Positions 19,817-57,929 of a DNA stretch of 64,000 nucleotides are shown one piece after another; position 1 is the first letter of the stretch; each line of letters opens with the position of its first letter. Source of the stretch: Shigella phage ESh36; sequence record ON528746; one strand, written 5' to 3'. The translations under genes and the position numbers were made by a program. Under the pieces are notes generated by a model. The model did not search any database and was not told the DNA's origin. It worked only from the letters and a program-made list of their open reading frames with translations.

Positions 19817-20017
19817 ATGGTACAAAAATTAATGGCACTTGTTAATGCCATAAAAGGTAATAAAAAACGTATAGCTTTTACTATTTCTGCTATGGTAGGA
19901 ATTTTACTCTGGAATTTTGTTTTATCACCAATTGCTATTGCTCATGGTGTTAATATTCCAGTAATTACTCTTGATACATTCGTAGATTTAGCATTTGCTT
20001 TAGTTGGGTTAATTTAA
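19817..20017 (+). CDS. possible small membrane protein (opposite strand)
   Basis: 66-codon ORF exactly filling the 56-61 intergenic gap, AAGGAGG before ATG; overlaps minus-strand promoter so uncertain. Confidence 0.25.
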   Translation: MVQKLMALVNAIKGNKKRIAFTISAMVGILLWNFVLSPIAIAHGVNIPVITLDTFVDLAFALVGLI

Positions 20018-21042
20018 ATCTTAGCATATTTAGATAACCGCATTTTAGCCATTAACCCCTGGGCAATATTATTTTTCATATATTCCATAATTTGTTCAGG
20101 GGTTGCACCTTCCTTTCTAATCATATCATTAACATCTTTTGATTTCCAGGGAGATTTATCCCAAAACATAACCCTTTCTCCTGCATCAACTAATTTAGTC
20201 ATTCGTTTAATAGTGTCAGGGTGACGAGGTTCATTATCTAAAACCCACACTCGTCTATCTTTAAATGGAACAACTTCTAGGTCTAATTGACCACCCGTAA
20301 TAGCTATACCATTTTCAATAAAAAGTGAATCTATAGGTCCTTCTAGAACATATACATCACCATCTTTAACTCGTTCGACTCCATATATTTTTGTTGCCTC
20401 AGGATAAGCTTTGATGGTGATATATTTTTGAGGAGCATCTTTCTTTAATGCACGTCCTTGAAAAGACTCAGCTTTTCCATTAGCATTATAAATTGGAATA
20501 ACAAGACGAGGCTCAGAAATTTCCTTTTTGTATGTTCCCGGTGCTATGCTATTAACCAATTTAGGCCATTCGGTTGTAAACCAAAGATATTTCCATTTAT
20601 CCTTTGGAATACAACGAGCTTTTACATATTTTATAATTGGATGGTCTTCCGCCAGTTTATCTAATCTAACACATGACGGAAGAGATTTAATTATTTTCTT
20701 CTCAGGTTGTTTAGGAAGTTCTTTAAGTTTTTCTACTGGACGACTTTTACCTTTTTCTTTTCTTATTTCAAAGATATACTCACGATATAAATCAGGTTCA
20801 AACTCCTTTAAATATATTCCGATTGGTGCATGATAGTTACAGTTATAACAATGAATATTTCCTTCATTATTATCACCATAATACCATCCACGGGCTTTAT
20901 TCTGGTCGGTTTTTGAATCTCCACACACTGGGCATCTAAACCGTAATTTAAAAGTTGAACTATTATTTACTTGTGTGAATTTAGGTAAATGAGCTAATGC
21001 ACGGTATGCAAACTCATTATCAATCCAAGGTATTGATGACAT
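20014..21042 (-). CDS. 61: DNA primase gp61
   Basis: 342-aa ORF with zinc-binding CPVCGD...CYNC and primase core; length equals T4 gp61. Confidence 0.9.
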   Translation of the reverse strand: MSSIPWIDNEFAYRALAHLPKFTQVNNSSTFKLRFRCPVCGDSKTDQNKARGWYYGDNNEGNIHCYNCNYHAPIGIYLKEFEPDLYREYIFEIRKEKGKSRPVEKLKELPKQPEKKIIKSLPSCVRLDKLAEDHPIIKYVKARCIPKDKWKYLWFTTEWPKLVNSIAPGTYKKEISEPRLVIPIYNANGKAESFQGRALKKDAPQKYITIKAYPEATKIYGVERVKDGDVYVLEGPIDSLFIENGIAITGGQLDLEVVPFKDRRVWVLDNEPRHPDTIKRMTKLVDAGERVMFWDKSPWKSKDVNDMIRKEGATPEQIMEYMKNNIAQGLMAKMRLSKYAKI

Positions 21043-21044
21043 TT

Positions 21045-21209
21045 TTACTCTTCTTTTTCTTTAGATTCCTCTTTTTTCTTTTTAGGAATCTGTTCAGGAC
21101 CTTTATTTACTACAGCGCCTGATGTTGTTCCAGTAGAGATATTTTCAGGACTACTACCTGAATCTCCAGCGACCATATCTTCTTTAATAAATTCTTTAAA
21201 TGTTTTCAT
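21045..21209 (-). CDS. hypothetical small acidic protein
   Basis: 54-codon ORF below track threshold; start codon lies inside the 46-bp repeat. Confidence 0.35.
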   Translation of the reverse strand: MKTFKEFIKEDMVAGDSGSSPENISTGTTSGAVVNKGPEQIPKKKKEESKEKEE

Positions 21210-21252
21210 ATTAACCTCTATTCATAAAAGCATTAAAAATTTGGTCATCAAT
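21207..21252. repeat. 46-bp direct repeat, copy A
   Basis: Identical to 21564..21609; spans a stop codon, GAGG SD and ATG of the next gene. Confidence 0.8.
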
Positions 21253-21566
21253 CGACGGAATAGCAACCTTTCGGCATCATTTAGCAAATCATTAATTTCA
21301 TCAGATAGCATAACACATGTGTCTTTATTTCCTGTAATTGTTACTGCACAATTACGAACGTTTTCTTTATCAAATTTTAGGTTAATATTTTCGTAGTGAA
21401 AATCCTTTAATGCCGAATATATCTTTAAAATGAAATTGTCTTTTACTACAATAAACCCAACCTCACTATTAAAACGTGGTTCATGGAAACTGTAATAAAC
21501 CTTTTCATCTATAAAATCGTATGAAATTTTTTCCATTTTTAAATATGAAAATTCAGAACTATACAT
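21222..21566 (-). CDS. hypothetical protein, paralog of half of adjacent 208-aa protein
   Basis: 114-aa ORF with GFIVVKDNFILKIY motif also found twice in ORF 21568..22194. Confidence 0.5.
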   Translation of the reverse strand: MYSSEFSYLKMEKISYDFIDEKVYYSFHEPRFNSEVGFIVVKDNFILKIYSALKDFHYENINLKFDKENVRNCAVTITGNKDTCVMLSDEINDLLNDAERLLFRRLMTKFLMLL

Positions 21567-21609
21567 ATTAACCTCTATTCATAAAAGCATTAAAAATTTG
21601 GTCATCAAT
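21564..21609. repeat. 46-bp direct repeat, copy B
   Basis: Identical to copy A, 357 bp away. Confidence 0.8.
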
Positions 21610-22194
21610 AGAAACATTTACTTTAGACTGTTTTTCGGATGGTAATTCATATCCACATATTACAATTTTGTGATCAATATCAAAATACACAGAAGCAATA
21701 TGATTAATGCTGCTTTCAGTAAAGTCTAAATCAACATCAATATCTTTTTGACCAAAGCCCAAAGGATAAATAATGCGAGTAATTCGATTATCTTTAACAA
21801 AGATTCCACCGACATACTCTGTACTGCGTTTAAAGTCTATACGCCGACGAAATGAAAAATATTCAGGCTCTTTATGAGCTCGGCTCATAGGGCACAACGA
21901 ATAACTAGAATAAGAGATGTCAAATCCTACGCCTTCAATATGAACTAAATTGTCATGATTAAACCAATTATAATCATATGCCAAGTCCATTAGATTGTCA
22001 TATGTGAAAGGCACCGGATTAACATCATTGGTCACAAGCATATAATTAGCAACTGCTATAATTTCATTATTTTTAACGAATACAAACCGTGATTGATGCG
22101 AATGACCTGGACCCGCGTTTTCACGATTAATGATATAACACTGGGCACCTTTATATTTGTATGTATCTTTGCACTTGTGCATTTGATAGAGCAT
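21568..22194 (-). CDS. hypothetical protein with internal duplicated motif
   Basis: 208-aa ORF; motifs FVFVKNNEIIAV and GGIFVKDNRITRIIY. Confidence 0.55.
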   Translation of the reverse strand: MLYQMHKCKDTYKYKGAQCYIINRENAGPGHSHQSRFVFVKNNEIIAVANYMLVTNDVNPVPFTYDNLMDLAYDYNWFNHDNLVHIEGVGFDISYSSYSLCPMSRAHKEPEYFSFRRRIDFKRSTEYVGGIFVKDNRITRIIYPLGFGQKDIDVDLDFTESSINHIASVYFDIDHKIVICGYELPSEKQSKVNVSIDDQIFNAFMNRG

Positions 22195-22487
22195 TATTCA
22201 CCTACCACTTCAGCGATGATATTTTTATTATTAAAGTTTTTATCGCAATACAGAACATAATTATACTGCATTACACCACCAGATTTAAGTTGTTTTTGCA
22301 CTTTAGCTTTCATTTCAGGACGATCGCGCTCAACGATATTCATAATATCTGCTTCAATTTGAGTTTCAACCTCAGTCTGATCCGCAGTCATAGACCATTC
22401 ACACAAATCTTTGTCATAACCCGCCATAGCAGGCTGAGCAGCGCAAGAAGATAAAGCAAAAATTGCAGCAAAGATAAATTTTTTCAT
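22194..22487 (-). CDS. sp: Spackle-like periplasmic protein
   Basis: 97-aa ORF with signal peptide; size and position match T4 sp. Confidence 0.6.
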   Translation of the reverse strand: MKKFIFAAIFALSSCAAQPAMAGYDKDLCEWSMTADQTEVETQIEADIMNIVERDRPEMKAKVQKQLKSGGVMQYNYVLYCDKNFNNKNIIAEVVGE

Positions 22488-22515
22488 GATAATCTCCTCA
22501 GTAGTTTATGTTTAT

Positions 22516-22545
22516 ATAGTATCTCAATTTCCAATAAAAGTAAAC
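22516..22545 (-). promoter_or_regulatory. T4-type early promoter
   Basis: GTTTAC, 18 bp, TACTAT. Confidence 0.55.
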
Positions 22546-22547
22546 AG

Positions 22548-22805
22548 TTATTTTAAAACTTTTGCGTAATCACATGTTACAAACTGTTTCTCTAGCTTAA
22601 CGATCTTACGAAAATACCTTTTACACTGACGAATCTGTCGCTTCGTAGGACGTACAGCAAACTTAATAAATTCCACTCGACCAGATGGAGGACTTTCTTC
22701 TGGTGGAATATCTAACACCAATTCCCACGTATCTGCAATAAGTGCTTTGAATTGAGTATTTTTCCTGATGTTATACGGTGTAGGTTTAAATAAAACAATA
22801 TGCAT
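22548..22805 (-). CDS. hypothetical protein
   Basis: 85-aa basic ORF. Confidence 0.45.
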   Translation of the reverse strand: MHIVLFKPTPYNIRKNTQFKALIADTWELVLDIPPEESPPSGRVEFIKFAVRPTKRQIRQCKRYFRKIVKLEKQFVTCDYAKVLK

Positions 22806-22806
22806 A

Positions 22807-22989
22807 TTATCCTCGGCAATCTACTTCACATACTTTCTTGTCATCAATGAAAGCTTTAACTAATGCTTTATTAACTTCAGCATATTGAGTAGTAGCCCAT
22901 TGAACGTCATCTTTCATCATTGTGATCTCTTTAGTAAACATGCTTTCATTCTTAAACCACCCCATAAAAACTACCTTTACCAATTCCAT
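22807..22989 (-). CDS. dmd: Dmd antitoxin-like protein
   Basis: 60-aa ORF just downstream of gene 41, preceded by early promoter; size and position as T4 dmd. Confidence 0.65.
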   Translation of the reverse strand: MELVKVVFMGWFKNESMFTKEITMMKDDVQWATTQYAEVNKALVKAFIDDKKVCEVDCRG

Positions 22990-23018
22990 AACAATCTCCC
23001 CATTTAACCAACAAGACT

Positions 23019-23048
23019 ACTATACCATAGTCTTGTCAGCTTGTAAAC
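23019..23048 (-). promoter_or_regulatory. T4-type early promoter
   Basis: GTTTAC, 18 bp, TATAGT; -35 overlaps the gene 41 stop codon (TAGTTTAC). Confidence 0.55.
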
Positions 23049-23671
23049 TAAAATTTTAATTCATTTGCCAAAGCATCTAACTGTGCTCGAGTGGATTCAT
23101 TTCTTTGATAGCGATTCTGCTCAGCCTGAATCTGTTGTGAACCTGCTACCTCACTCACTTCAGTTGGAGTAGAATCTTGTTCAATTTCTACCCATTTCTG
23201 ATTTCCTTTTTGAACACCCATCAAAAACTTATTCCATTTGTTCTTATCACCATATCGTGATTTGATTTGCTTAATGAGTTGTTGTTCAGCAGCTGCTAAC
23301 TCCTCAGTTTCAATGACTGCAAGCATAAAATCAGCTGTTGCTGGAAGTCCGGCACTGTTTTTAGTCAGTATACCGTTAGCATAGAAAAGCTGGTCCCCGG
23401 CAACAGAAATATCATACATCATGTCTTCTTCGAGTTCTTCAATTTTCAGAACTTCATCATTATAATCAAGTAATTTATCTGTTTTCTCATAAAGCTTAGC
23501 GTTATACTTTTCTGTCTGCATCAGAGCTTCAAAGATTTCTTCAGCGGAAGAATCATTACCGTTGATTGATGCATAATGATTAGCAATTGACCAACATCTT
23601 AAAGATGCTAGATACTCATCAAAATCCGTGTACTCTGCCGTCCCATCCAAATTATACACATTAGCAAGCAT
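23048..23671 (-). CDS. 41: helicase gp41 C-terminal fragment: split-intein C-half fused to C-extein
   Basis: KIEELEEDMMYDISVAGDQLFYANGILTKN (intein blocks F/G) immediately followed by SAGLPATADFMLAVIETEEL... helicase C-terminus; start of C-half uncertain. Confidence 0.75.
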   Translation of the reverse strand: MLANVYNLDGTAEYTDFDEYLASLRCWSIANHYASINGNDSSAEEIFEALMQTEKYNAKLYEKTDKLLDYNDEVLKIEELEEDMMYDISVAGDQLFYANGILTKNSAGLPATADFMLAVIETEELAAAEQQLIKQIKSRYGDKNKWNKFLMGVQKGNQKWVEIEQDSTPTEVSEVAGSQQIQAEQNRYQRNESTRAQLDALANELKF

Positions 23672-24659
23672 TTTTAATCACCTCTACCATTTCAGATAGT
23701 CTCATTGTATCATTGATTCTTACTAAAGCAAAACCATTCTTTTTCGCTATAAGCTCCTTCCTAAGATCTTTTCTTATCGCCTTAGTTTGGCTTATACCAT
23801 AAACATACCCTCGATACTCATGCTCATGACCTTTAATAACATGGAATGCTCTGCCGTCATATTCTATTAAAGTATTGCCTATTTTACCATCATAAAATAC
23901 GATAGAATTTTTTCTTCTAATAAACCATTCTCTATCGATCTTTATTGACAAAGCCGCTTCTATTTGGTTTAATATTCTATCACATTCTTTTGACGTACGG
24001 GTTCTTGGATTTTTAAAAAATGCTCTAGCTTGTTCTGCCTTTTTATCTTTATACACATGTTCCCAGCTATTTCCGTATTTGTATTTTAATTTATTTTTAA
24101 AATTTTCAACGGTTTTTAATGCGTGAGATTCTTTGGCTTCTTTGAGAGCTTGCTCGGGGTTATCAACTCCTTTGTTAGTCCAAAATTCCAATTCATACCA
24201 TTTTCTATTAGATTTGTGCCAATTTTTCTTAAGTGAAATTGAAATCTTTTTAGAAATTTCTTCAGATTTTTTGAATTTTGATTTTGTCAAAGGATTTGAA
24301 TTTCTAACTTTAGCACCTGAAATATAATTAGCATTCGCCTTCGACCATGCGTATTCAGCATAAGCTAAACCATATACTAAAACATTTCTATCGTATTGTG
24401 ATATTCCCGCAATAGAAATTTTGCCTCGTTTGAGGCATTGTTCTATCTCAGATTCTGTTGGCCAACAGCATAACCTAGCATAGTATTTTACTGTAGATTT
24501 TAAAAATATCGTTTTATCTAATTTTATGGATGCAAGATGTTCCTTTATTTTTATAATATTATATTCCTTTGGCTCATTAACAAGTTCATCTTTAAAATGT
24601 TTTAAAGAACAAAGGCGTTTCCATACGCCTTCAACAGAATAATCAGTTATTTGTCGCAA
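23661..24659 (-). CDS. free-standing homing endonuclease, EDxHD / Vsr-like (DUF559) family
   Basis: 332-aa ORF in a third frame between the gp41 halves; C-terminal FYDGKIGNTLIEYDGRAFHV...DLRKELIAKKNGFALVRIND; apparent TTG start. Confidence 0.65.
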   Translation of the reverse strand: MRQITDYSVEGVWKRLCSLKHFKDELVNEPKEYNIIKIKEHLASIKLDKTIFLKSTVKYYARLCCWPTESEIEQCLKRGKISIAGISQYDRNVLVYGLAYAEYAWSKANANYISGAKVRNSNPLTKSKFKKSEEISKKISISLKKNWHKSNRKWYELEFWTNKGVDNPEQALKEAKESHALKTVENFKNKLKYKYGNSWEHVYKDKKAEQARAFFKNPRTRTSKECDRILNQIEAALSIKIDREWFIRRKNSIVFYDGKIGNTLIEYDGRAFHVIKGHEHEYRGYVYGISQTKAIRKDLRKELIAKKNGFALVRINDTMRLSEMVEVIKNAC

Positions 24660-26028
24660 ATTTAGTACCTACCGTAATACCATTGGCAATAGACATTCTT
24701 CCACGGTCTGTTGGAAACTTATGCATATCCGAGCATATGATTGTTTTACCTGATTTAAGAGTAATTTTGTATTTTTTAGAACGCTTCGGATGAGAAACTT
24801 GGATGACAGGTCTGAATCCATCATATGATTCGACCATATCACCTACTTTAACTTCATTGATGAATTTTTCACCCTTTAAAGTTTTTACTACAGTAGATTT
24901 ATCTAAACATTCTGCAATATCACTCATGTTAACATCAGAAGAATCCCAAGCTTGTTTACCAACCTGCGCTGCAGTCCAAAGAACAGTTTCGGTTTCAACA
25001 GCCAGAGCACGCAATTCCTCTGCAATAGCTTTAACAGTTGTGTAACTATTTTCTGAATAAACTCTAATGCGGCAAGATTTACAAATACCTAGATAGTCGA
25101 CAATAATGATTGTTGGAACAAAATTCTTCTTGAGCTTTAATTCATTTAAAAGTGATCGAAATGTATTAGCGTCTGCTCCACCAGTAGGATATTGCTTAAC
25201 GATTAAACGACCAAGGGTAGATTTCTCACGCCATTTTTCCATTTTTCCTTTATATTCAGCGTAAGAAATATGTCCATCATCAATATCGTCAAGAGAAACA
25301 TCGAGCATATTAGCATCAATACGCTTAGCACAGACTTCTTCTGCCATTTCCATGGAAATGTAAAGAACATTATGTCCGAGCTGCAAATAATCTGCTGCCA
25401 ATGAACACAAACCTAATGACTTACCGACGTTAACACCAGCCATTAAAACGTTCAGTGTTCCTGTCTCAGCTCCGCCTTTAGTAATTTTGTTTAGAATTCT
25501 GAGTTTAAATGGAACCTTACGAGCTTTATTCATATAAGATAGCCAACGTGCTTCGTAGTCATCCATCCAATCATGACCAACGTAGCTATCAAATGAAATT
25601 GATAATGCTTGCCGCATAATGTCAGGAATAGCACCAACATCCGGCATTTTCTTATTTCGTTTTTCCGGAGGAAGTTCAGCATTGGTTTGAATTTCGATTA
25701 TTTTAGACGTAGCATTAAACATCGCCCTTTGCTGAACATATTTTTCTGTTTCTTTTATTAACCAGCTGTGGTCTTCTGGAGAATCAGCCAGTTTTGAAAT
25801 AAGTGTTTTTACACCAGAATATTCTGTTTCAGTAAATGAACTATTTTCTAATGCAACATTTAACGCATTAATAGATGGAACGCTATGATACTCATTAACA
25901 TGAGATTTAATTAATTTGAACGTATTTTTAGCTGGACCACTTTCAAAATATTCTGAATCCATATATGGCCAAACTTTTGAAAAATAAGCTTGATCAAATA
26001 TGAGATGAGAAAGAATAATTTCTACCAC
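24643..26028 (-). CDS. 41: helicase gp41 N-terminal fragment: N-extein (373 aa) fused to split-intein N-half (88 aa)
   Basis: DnaB-like helicase with Walker A GVNVGKS up to ...NMSDIAE, then CLDKSTVVKTLKGEKF...TIICSDMHKFPT (intein blocks A/B) and stop. Confidence 0.8.
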   Translation of the reverse strand: MVEIILSHLIFDQAYFSKVWPYMDSEYFESGPAKNTFKLIKSHVNEYHSVPSINALNVALENSSFTETEYSGVKTLISKLADSPEDHSWLIKETEKYVQQRAMFNATSKIIEIQTNAELPPEKRNKKMPDVGAIPDIMRQALSISFDSYVGHDWMDDYEARWLSYMNKARKVPFKLRILNKITKGGAETGTLNVLMAGVNVGKSLGLCSLAADYLQLGHNVLYISMEMAEEVCAKRIDANMLDVSLDDIDDGHISYAEYKGKMEKWREKSTLGRLIVKQYPTGGADANTFRSLLNELKLKKNFVPTIIIVDYLGICKSCRIRVYSENSYTTVKAIAEELRALAVETETVLWTAAQVGKQAWDSSDVNMSDIAECLDKSTVVKTLKGEKFINEVKVGDMVESYDGFRPVIQVSHPKRSKKYKITLKSGKTIICSDMHKFPTDRGRMSIANGITVGTKFATNN

Positions 26029-30848: not shown

Positions 30849-30885
30849 TTCATTCTCCAAATCCGTATCAGTAGTTGATAGTTGT

Positions 30886-30915
30886 ATAGTACCACAGAGG
30901 AACAGTCTTGTAAAC
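30886..30915 (-). promoter_or_regulatory. T4-type early promoter
   Basis: GTTTAC, 18 bp, TACTAT; part of a repeated cassette. Confidence 0.6.
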
Positions 30916-55425: not shown

Positions 55426-55953
55426 TTATGCGAGTACCGTCTTTAACCGTTCTTCAAACTTCCGAAGAGTATTTTGGCGTTCAGCTCTTTGCTTTTTGTA
55501 AGTTTCAATACGCTCTGAAATGAGAGTGTATCGTTCATTTACCGATTCTTTCATAAAATCAGGAATTTCACGAGAAGCTTTAATCTCGTCAAATTTATCA
55601 ATAACAGCTTGTTCTTCAGCAATTAAGTTATCATACATTAAAATATCTTTCTTGATGAACTCAATATCTTCTTGAGTTACACGAGATAATTTAGATGCTT
55701 TATCCTTTTTGTACTGTTCGTTAGTATCACGAGACCAGTGTAATGTACGATTTTTATTCGTATTCTTGTAAATTTCTACAATACCAATCTCATCAATAAT
55801 AACGATCCAATTCCAACGGGATTTGTAAATTTGTCCTCCATCAACAGTGATTTCACCTCCGATTGAGATGTCATTAAAGAACTTGCTTTGTGCTTCAGAT
55901 TTAAATTTACCATCGTTGTAATTTACCAAGTTGAAAATATCTTTAGCGTTCAT
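55426..55953 (-). CDS. hypothetical protein
   Basis: 175-aa ORF preceded by early promoter. Confidence 0.5.
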   Translation of the reverse strand: MNAKDIFNLVNYNDGKFKSEAQSKFFNDISIGGEITVDGGQIYKSRWNWIVIIDEIGIVEIYKNTNKNRTLHWSRDTNEQYKKDKASKLSRVTQEDIEFIKKDILMYDNLIAEEQAVIDKFDEIKASREIPDFMKESVNERYTLISERIETYKKQRAERQNTLRKFEERLKTVLA

Positions 55954-55981
55954 TTTCTGTTCCTCCGTAGTTGATAGTTGT

Positions 55982-56011
55982 ATAGTACCACAGAGGAACA
56001 GTCTTGTAAAC
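55982..56011 (-). promoter_or_regulatory. T4-type early promoter
   Basis: GTTTAC, 18 bp, TACTAT; repeated cassette copy. Confidence 0.6.
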
Positions 56012-57865: not shown

Positions 57866-57899
57866 TTTATTCTCCAAATCCGTATCAGTTGATAGTTGT

Positions 57900-57929
57900 A
57901 TAGTACCATAAAGCTTTATGCTTGTAAAC
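57900..57929 (-). promoter_or_regulatory. T4-type early promoter
   Basis: GTTTAC, 18 bp, TACTAT; repeated cassette copy. Confidence 0.6.

Follow-up and report, generated by a model that had tools for sequence, protein, structure and literature searches.

Why should two adjacent phage genes that are otherwise dissimilar at the DNA level end in exactly the same 46 base pairs? This question is raised by a locus in Shigella phage ESh36 (sequence record ON528746), in which a stretch of 64,000 nucleotides (64 kb; hereafter the window, with positions counted from its first letter) carries two identical copies of a 46-mer associated with adfA (anti-DarT factor A, gene 61.2) and with a small open reading frame (ORF) beside it. 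The window derives from a Tequatrovirus, a T4-like phage, and a search with 3 kb of sequence surrounding the locus hits hundreds of T4-like phages at ~97% identity. Our comparisons indicate that the 46-mer is probably the common 3' terminus of adjacent AdfA-family paralogues, the ends of which have been homogenised by recombination, and that it probably acts as a breakpoint for gain and loss of the small gene.

The repeat and the genes that end in it

The 46-mer CATATTAACCTCTATTCATAAAAGCATTAAAAATTTGGTCATCAAT occurs exactly at 21207-21252 (copy 1) and 21564-21609 (copy 2), which confirms the perfect direct repeat with a spacing of 357 bp (start to start) that a preliminary description of the window had reported. 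Identity reaches 49 nucleotides (nt) if one mismatch is allowed. The 46-mer is the longest exact repeat in the window, and ~8e-17 such pairs are expected by chance from the base composition. Genes at the locus are all encoded on the minus strand and follow the T4 order: gene 41, dmd, 61.4 (tifA), sp, 61.2, a 114-amino-acid (aa) ORF (ORF114), 61.1, 61 (primase) and 56. Because of this shared orientation, the locus is transcriptionally upstream of the primase gene (gene 61; 20014-21042, minus strand), rather than downstream as initially described; it lies to the right of that gene only when the plus strand is read.

On the coding (minus) strand, the repeat reads ATTGATGACCAAATTTTTAATGCTTTTATGAATAGAGGTTAATATG. 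It encodes the last 13 codons of a gene (IDDQIFNAFMNRG) followed by a TAA stop codon, a single T and an ATG, and a GAGG Shine-Dalgarno (SD) sequence lies inside the last two of the 13 codons. These are the stop codon, SD and ATG that had already been noticed in each copy. Each copy thus joins the close of one gene to the signals that start the following one, an arrangement that might permit translational coupling across the stop/SD/ATG junction.

Copy 2 (minus strand) comprises the 13 codons at the 3' end of adfA, its TAA at 21568-21570, one T and the ATG of ORF114 at 21566-21564. The adfA gene (21568-22194, minus strand) encodes 208 aa and matches Pfam family PF23813 with E=1e-136 and 453 bits; its start overlaps the stop codon of its upstream neighbour sp (spackle; 22194-22487, minus strand) in the sequence TAATG. 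Copy 1, identical and on the same strand, supplies the SD and start codon (21209-21207) of gene 61.1 (54 aa; 21045-21209, minus strand). In related phages, copy 1 is also the 3' end of a 118-aa ORF (hereafter ORF118), with a TAA at 21211-21213, whereas in ESh36 ORF114 (21222-21566, minus strand) stops inside copy 1 at a TGA (21222-21224) in another frame.

ORF114 is a frameshifted copy of this known 118-aa ORF, RB32ORF033c (phrog_4122), a single-domain AdfA paralogue whose intact form is present in ~298 phage records. In RB51, teqhad, Sf21 and T2, the small ORF has 118-119 aa, ends in ...PSIDDQIFNAFMNRG* and is read in the same frame as AdfA, with a period of 358 bp in the alignment. The ESh36 copy lacks one A of an A4 run (21269-21271, minus strand; TTT on the plus strand, AAA in the coding sense, versus TTTT in relatives), which leaves its last 15 residues (RLLFRRLMTKFLMLL) out of frame. 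Repair in silico restores 118 aa, of which 115 are identical to protein P0001 of wV7. None of 299 related records has the same 1-nt deletion, which may be either a genuine mutation private to this phage or a sequencing error in the homopolymer. It is because of this deletion that the two copies are read in different frames in ESh36. The different frames noted in the preliminary description are thus a private frameshift and not a design feature of the locus, and relatives read both copies in one frame. The frameshift also accounts for the lack of any Pfam match to ORF114 at E<=1.

The intact 118-aa proteins score 31-33.5 bits against PF23813 (gathering threshold 27), although they cover only profile positions 113/129-211 of 211 and owe a large part of this score to the shared tail. 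The two-domain architecture of the family (~208-216 aa) is found in the 208-aa ORF and not in its single-domain neighbour. Because the identical tail supplies so much of the Pfam score, we removed the last 14-15 residues from both families before comparing them again. After trimming, hhalign aligns ORF118 residues 20-81 collinearly with AdfA residues 108-174 (30% identity over 61 columns, E=0.0029), and including more diverse members gives E=0.0024 against the C-terminal half of AdfA and 3.4e-4 against the N-terminal half. Trimmed Smith-Waterman comparisons of ORF118 with AdfA reach z=3.0-4.7 relative to shuffled sequences. The N- and C-terminal halves of AdfA also match each other (hhalign E=6.5e-5; Smith-Waterman z=4.8), and phrog_4122, the family of the small ORF, matches both ORF114 and residues 112-208 of gp61.2 (E=1.9e-7). 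AdfA looks like two tandem copies of a ~100-aa domain capped by a C-terminal tail helix, and the small ORF looks like one AdfA-type domain carrying the same tail.

A motif that had been noticed in both ORFs proves to be VKDN, the β-hairpin turn of the AdfA-type domain. It is part of this collinear, statistically supported homology and does reflect relatedness. The simple pairwise alignment that had been proposed as a check returns no significant result (BLASTP of the two ORFs, E=1), and profile methods are required for the homology to appear. Structure models add a little more information. AlphaFold predictions have low confidence (pLDDT 55 for ORF118 and 69 for AdfA) and display the same order of secondary-structure elements, with the tail as the terminal helix in both. 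When the AdfA model is used as a Foldseek query against BFVD, the top non-self matches are a protein of the 118-aa class (E=1.7e-3) and a 145-aa protein from phage VR25 (E=9.9e-3), which is weak support for a shared fold in view of poor TM-scores and the contribution of the shared tail. The same database holds a 157-aa protein of Yersinia phage fPS-65 (A0A449C4E3) that is 97% identical to AdfA, which suggests another natural truncated adfA variant.

A HMMER search of 1.8 billion representatives with ORF118 recovered three relatives and one spurious repeat protein, and a PDB fold search, a PDB sequence search and PADLOC returned nothing. The annotators of RB51 called RB32ORF033c 'similar to gp61.2', and our literature search found no paper that mentions it. 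The preliminary description had identified neither the 208-aa ORF as AdfA nor the small ORF as RB32ORF033c. For AdfA, a His at position 164 is reported to be needed for neutralisation of DarT1 (PMC11825919); as we read the hhalign alignment, the corresponding residue of ORF118 is Asn. Deletion of adfA from T4 produced no phenotype against the DarTG1 tested, and T2 has been described as naturally lacking an adfA homologue (PMC11257639, PMC11825919). The T2 genome (MH751506; L006 1501-1857) does encode the 118-aa single-domain paralogue directly after sp, and this protein scores 32.5 bits against the PF23813 threshold of 27. ORF118 is a candidate counter-defence factor.

Identical ends on diverged bodies

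Once the tails are removed, ORF118 and the C-terminal half of AdfA share 31-34% amino-acid identity. Closer relatives of ORF118 are found in another genus. Full-length homologues with 44-49% identity are present in Gaprivervirus (VR20, VR25, SP18 and EAWsc9), where each is a stand-alone gene located directly after a 145-aa gene, and a tail-trimmed comparison of the Tequatrovirus and Gaprivervirus genes gives 45% identity with z about 30. About half of the matched records of related phages contain ORF118, and its protein is 72-100% identical across ~298 Tequatrovirus genomes. From these comparisons, the two gene bodies appear to be ancient paralogues.

The ends follow a different pattern. Within a single genome, the two 46-nt ends differ at no position in the ESh36 window, at one position in teqhad and at one in L036, all of which carry a T4-type adfA allele. 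Genomes with an RB51-type allele (RB51, Sf21/L025, L028 and L029) have three differences, and the ends of the 145-aa gene and the 118-aa-class gene of Gaprivervirus differ from each other at 2-6 positions. When ends of the same gene class are compared between genera, 4-7 of the 46 nt differ. A null model based on the codon usage of the ESh36 window and the same peptide predicts that 5.3 of 13 codons should differ, with a probability of 6.6e-4 that all 13 are identical. The T4-type lineage thus displays a feature of concerted evolution: ends are 0-1/46 apart within a genome versus 4-7 between genera, whereas the bodies are 31-34% identical within a genome versus 45% between genera. Because the tails within a genome are more alike than the bodies predict, we infer that they have been homogenised by recombination. 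Gene conversion, unequal crossover or insertion of a cassette at the junction might each have made the ends identical, and the signal appears clearest in the T4-type allele lineage to which ESh36 belongs. A GAC-GAT variant is located in the adfA end in RB51 and in the ORF118 end in Sf21.

Gene content varies at the same place. In T4, adfA adjoins 61.1 with exactly one identical 46-mer between them and without ORF118. T2 has the order sp-ORF118-61.1 and lacks adfA, and RB3 has the order sp-61.1 and lacks both genes. Tequatrovirus genomes therefore exist in four states, with both genes (ESh36), adfA only (T4), ORF118 only (T2) or neither (RB3). Extrapolation from an evenly spaced sample of 60 of the 500 matching records suggests that ~33% are T4-like, ~58% have ORF118 beside 61.1 and ~5% are RB3-like. 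All junctions, including those that follow sp in T2 and RB3, share ...TAGAGG(T/C)TA(A/G)TATG; in these two phages, sp is followed directly by TAATTAGAGG(T/C)TA(G/A)TATG and the next gene. A simple microhomology deletion does not exactly fit the T2 and RB3 junctions. In RB3 (NC_025419; L026 1499-1969), sp and 61.4 are in addition separated by an inserted goF-like gene, which reveals further flux of gene content in this region.

Because T4 retains one 46-mer where ORF118 is missing, and because all four states occur, the repeat can be viewed as a natural breakpoint for insertions and deletions. The preliminary description had tied the repeat to such events and had suggested comparison with related genomes, and the single 46-mer of T4, with no ORF between 61.1 and 61.2, bears out that connection. 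The T4 state is the product that would be expected from recombination between the two copies, or it could equally be the substrate for the reverse event, such that any direction assigned to an individual gain or loss would be provisional.

These observations can be joined in the following mechanism, which we consider probable. An old paralogy would have given rise to bodies that diverged to ~30% identity, with the shorter gene having orthologues in another genus. The ends would have been made identical at the DNA level by the homologous recombination machinery of the phage itself, through gene conversion or unequal crossing-over between them. Every unit would then close in the same junction, composed of the tail helix, the stop codon and the overlapping SD and ATG of the next gene, and the resulting 46-bp block of homology would offer a breakpoint at which the 358-bp ORF118 unit could be gained or lost. 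If the two copies recombined, the T4 arrangement of adfA, one 46-mer and 61.1 would result. In ESh36, an additional 1-nt deletion would have put the tail of the small ORF out of frame.

Several points weigh against this proposal. Statistical support for homology between the bodies is modest (P about 1e-3 to 1e-5), the alignments behind it are shallow and the structure models have low confidence. Only ~10-12 synonymous sites are informative with regard to the ends, and few genomes were compared in detail. Furthermore, the three differences seen in genomes with the RB51-type allele are not clearly below the expectation without conversion, and homogenisation is therefore well supported for the T4-type allele lineage only. 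Recombination at the 46-mer itself is put forward on sequence grounds, and the presence or absence of the gene could also spread when the long homologous flanks recombine in the ordinary way, with no event inside the 46-mer. Finally, gene conversion and insertion of a cassette at the junction would leave the same pattern in these data.

This last point leads to an alternative that is less probable but deserves consideration, in which another T-even phage donated the ORF118 unit (body, tail and junction) to a T4-like adfA-61.1 genome by recombination within the conserved tail and junction, possibly through a circular intermediate. The identical ends would then be the footprint of that entry rather than a product of ongoing gene conversion. 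Consistent with such an acquisition, ORF118 resembles a gene from another genus more closely than it resembles its neighbour; the same tail and junction close three classes of gene whose bodies differ, found among Tequatrovirus, Gaprivervirus and Dhaka-like phages; and all four presence/absence states occur. There is also a precedent in RB49 and phi1, in which ORFs flanked by PeSLs (non-coding elements that carry an early promoter and a stem-loop terminator) form mini-circles and move in this way (PMC2839356). However, no donor with a near-identical ORF118 was found outside Tequatrovirus, where the closest homologues are those with 44-49% identity, and the outcome would be structurally indistinguishable from that of conversion or unequal crossover. 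In addition, at the loci examined in both genera, another gene with the tail immediately precedes ORF118 on the sp-to-61.1 side. Because this placement is alike in the two genera, it suggests vertical inheritance of the tandem arrangement. We continue to favour homogenisation of the ends of adjacent paralogues.

The tail that the 46-mer encodes is a conserved C-terminal helix, DDQIFNAFMNRG, with the helix assigned from the low-confidence AlphaFold models. Its DDQIFNAFM segment is the same in every AdfA and ORF118 protein that protein searches recovered. The 145-aa gene of Gaprivervirus also ends in ...VDDQIFNAFMKRD*-TAATATG. More broadly, a ~145-aa gene in Gaprivervirus and Dhaka-like phages (VR25 = L007 1059-1496; also L008, L009, L011, L019, L020 and L023) carries the tail ...YS[VI]DDQIFNAFM[KN]R[DG]*-TAATATG. 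The body of this class has no significant similarity to AdfA or ORF118 by hhalign or Smith-Waterman comparison. Scans of IMG/VR and metagenomes with a degenerate tail pattern located the tail in T4-like contigs only, where it is carried by AdfA (208-216 aa), ~118-aa and ~145-aa proteins and by no new bodies.

Use of one tail by three classes with different bodies, together with the existence of all four adfA/ORF118 states, permits a more speculative proposal, which we regard as rather doubtful. The tail and junction (DDQIFNAFM[NK]R[GD], stop, SD and ATG) might form a portable, integrase-free 'cassette end' that acts both as DNA and as protein. As DNA, it might allow T-even phages to plug in, swap, fuse and drop anti-defence effector domains by their own recombination. 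As protein, it might serve as a shared docking helix through which different effector domains reach the same partner. If so, ORF118 would be an anti-toxin or anti-ADP-ribosyltransferase factor, and T2 would carry a mini-AdfA.

Other explanations for the exact repeat

A very unlikely explanation is that the exact 46-mer is retained as a functional element at the nucleotide level, either as a middle promoter dependent on MotA or as an RNA structure that controls translation of the next gene. Both copies do match the MotA-box/-10 pattern (TGCTTTT, 12 nt, TAATAT) with one mismatch, and one-mismatch matches of this type are enriched in the window (51 versus 19.7 expected). Furthermore, the SD and start codon of the next gene reside inside the repeat. 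However, nearly every synonymous site among the 13 tail codons varies freely between lineages. Because of this variation, the constraint appears to act on the peptide, the SD and the stop/start codons, and not on the nucleotides as such. A transcript initiated from the putative -10 element would begin after the ATG of the next gene. RNA folding in and around the 46-mer yields no more structure than is found for shuffled sequences (z-scores of +0.7, +0.4 and -0.5).

Searches for conventional signals were likewise negative. A scan for sigma-70-like promoters identified no site inside either copy, and a promoter-like role of this type was rejected. No terminator-like sites were found in 20900-23100 in a search for intrinsic terminators, and a literature search found no published promoter at the repeat. 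A MotA-type middle promoter was also rejected as a candidate, given that the match includes one mismatch, that ~20 such matches are expected per window by chance and that the box is broken in Gaprivervirus copies (TGCC...).

The preliminary description had instead proposed a recent partial tandem duplication of the 3'-terminal 357 bp of adfA, in which the 46-mer would be the undiverged remnant. Some characteristics of the locus are in keeping with this idea. With a unit of this length, an ORF begun at the junction ATG would be in frame; the bodies are homologous and collinear; and tandem amplifications arise readily in this genomic island (PMC9391042). However, similarity at the DNA level ends abruptly at the boundary of the 46-mer. 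Upstream of it, the two units match at 27 of 100 positions in register, and their global alignment score is -41 versus -45.5 +/- 7.6 for shuffled sequences. The protein identity of 31-34% is similarly low, and the broad distribution of ORF118 through Tequatrovirus and, in more distant form, Gaprivervirus is difficult to reconcile with a young gene. Furthermore, a recent duplicate must resemble its own parent more closely than any gene from another genus. Because the DNA of the bodies is at the random level and ORF118 is closer to the Gaprivervirus gene than to its neighbour, we conclude that the duplication is not recent, and its origin as a fresh copy of adfA is highly improbable.

The chance that the repeat was collapsed or mis-joined in this one assembly is negligible: this repeat can confuse assemblies (as the N-rich phiD1 record described below might illustrate) and the homopolymer frameshift in the window could be a sequencing error, but the same two-copy arrangement, with a period of 358 bp, is present in ~298 independently sequenced phage genomes and several metagenomic contigs. 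The possibility of an artefact, which had been raised at the outset, can thus be set aside.

In the record of Yersinia phage phiD1 (NC_027353; L004 858-1766), the 118-aa ORF appears twice. The fragment between the copies begins in the manner of 61.1, contains many Ns and picks up again midway through ORF118. This structure could be either a real product of unequal crossover or a mis-assembly caused by the repeat. We did not use this tandem duplication as evidence, because its junction is full of Ns.

Genomic surroundings and known systems

Other parts of the window also differ from T4 in gene content. Between genes 56 and 61 (19838-20014), where T4 has a dam methyltransferase gene, the ESh36 window has none; a 66-aa plus-strand ORF (19817-20017) occupies the place of dam, as annotated in T2 and RB3 (dam.1 / RB32030w-like). 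Gene 41, which encodes the replicative helicase (23048-26028, minus strand), is fractured exactly between E373 and S374 of T4 gp41. The N-terminal piece (24646-26028) comprises gp41 residues 1-373 at 99% identity plus an 88-aa tail that starts with CLDKS..., and the C-terminal piece (23051-23671) comprises a 105-aa leader ending in ...FYANGILTKN followed by gp41 residues 374-475. A 332-aa ORF (23664-24659) without a Pfam or PHROG match is located between the two pieces and overlaps both. This anatomy resembles that of a split intein with a free-standing endonuclease gene, and it may be comparable to 'fractured genes' of the gp41-1 type.

A second repeated element, ~45-65 nt in length and nearly identical among its copies, occurs 3-4 times in the window (about 708-770, 30852-30915, 55949-56011 and 57869-57910). 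Each copy is positioned just upstream of a minus-strand ATG and reads GTTTACAAGACTGTTCCTCTGTGGTACTATACAACTATCAACTACGGAGGAACAGAAAATGAA on that strand. The element has the appearance of a reiterated T4 early promoter with its leader, and it could be another substrate for recombination.

The genes dmd, tifA and adfA have been grouped as an 'anti-TA island' (TA, toxin-antitoxin; PMC9391042). In T-even phages, the island spans dmd, tifA/61.4, sp and adfA/61.2, and the rapid gene gain, loss and amplification that occur in it decide which bacterial toxin-antitoxin defences a phage overcomes. The ESh36 locus provides a natural example of recombination-driven change in gene content, which has so far been seen mainly in the laboratory. 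Our findings refine the annotation of the locus and do not overturn current understanding, and they offer two leads: an uncharacterised single-domain paralogue of AdfA, and a C-terminal helix conserved in three different proteins. Overall, the locus is a fairly ordinary case of phage gene-family dynamics, with tandem paralogues that share a homogenised segment in a recombination-prone island.

Among known systems, AdfA (T4 gp61.2, PF23813) itself is a close counterpart of the small gene. In its intact 118-aa form, the neighbour scores above the Pfam threshold, largely through the C-terminal tail that it has in common with AdfA, and its alignment with the C-terminal domain of AdfA is collinear. 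It differs in having one domain rather than two and an Asn at the position of the AdfA His, and the ESh36 copy has lost its tail through the frameshift. T4-like genomes are known to carry paralogous ORFs beside conserved genes (PMC1524935, 2006), and the ESh36 arrangement, in which a novel ORF beside a conserved gene is its diverged paralogue, conforms to that pattern. Within the searchable literature, we found no description in that report of a homogenised 3' end or of a role as an indel breakpoint.

In mechanism, the nearest analogue of the locus is the system of PeSL cassettes (Arbiol et al. 2010, PMC2839356; PMC4122927). In both settings, a variable region within a T4-type genome holds a small accessory ORF bracketed by direct repeats, each a few tens of bp long, and related phages without the ORF keep one repeat, as is evident from ESh36 and T4. 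In both, homologous recombination by the phage itself is the proposed engine; in RB49 and phi1, repeat-flanked accessory ORFs are excised as mini-circles and reinserted by this route (PMC2839356). However, the 46-mer encodes a C-terminal helix and the adjoining stop/SD/start signals. Because it is coding and has neither a promoter nor a stem-loop, it is not a PeSL.

A parallel in location is the segmental amplification that T4 undergoes at dmd-tifA (Srikant et al. 2022, PMC9391042), which affects the same island two genes away and in which short homologies readily give rise to tandem repeats and deletions. In that system, T4 forms tandem amplifications and deletions at microhomologies of 6-10 bp (PMC9391042), and the copies are young, head-to-tail identical and laboratory-selected. 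In contrast, the units at the ESh36 locus are ancient paralogues that share only their 46-bp end.

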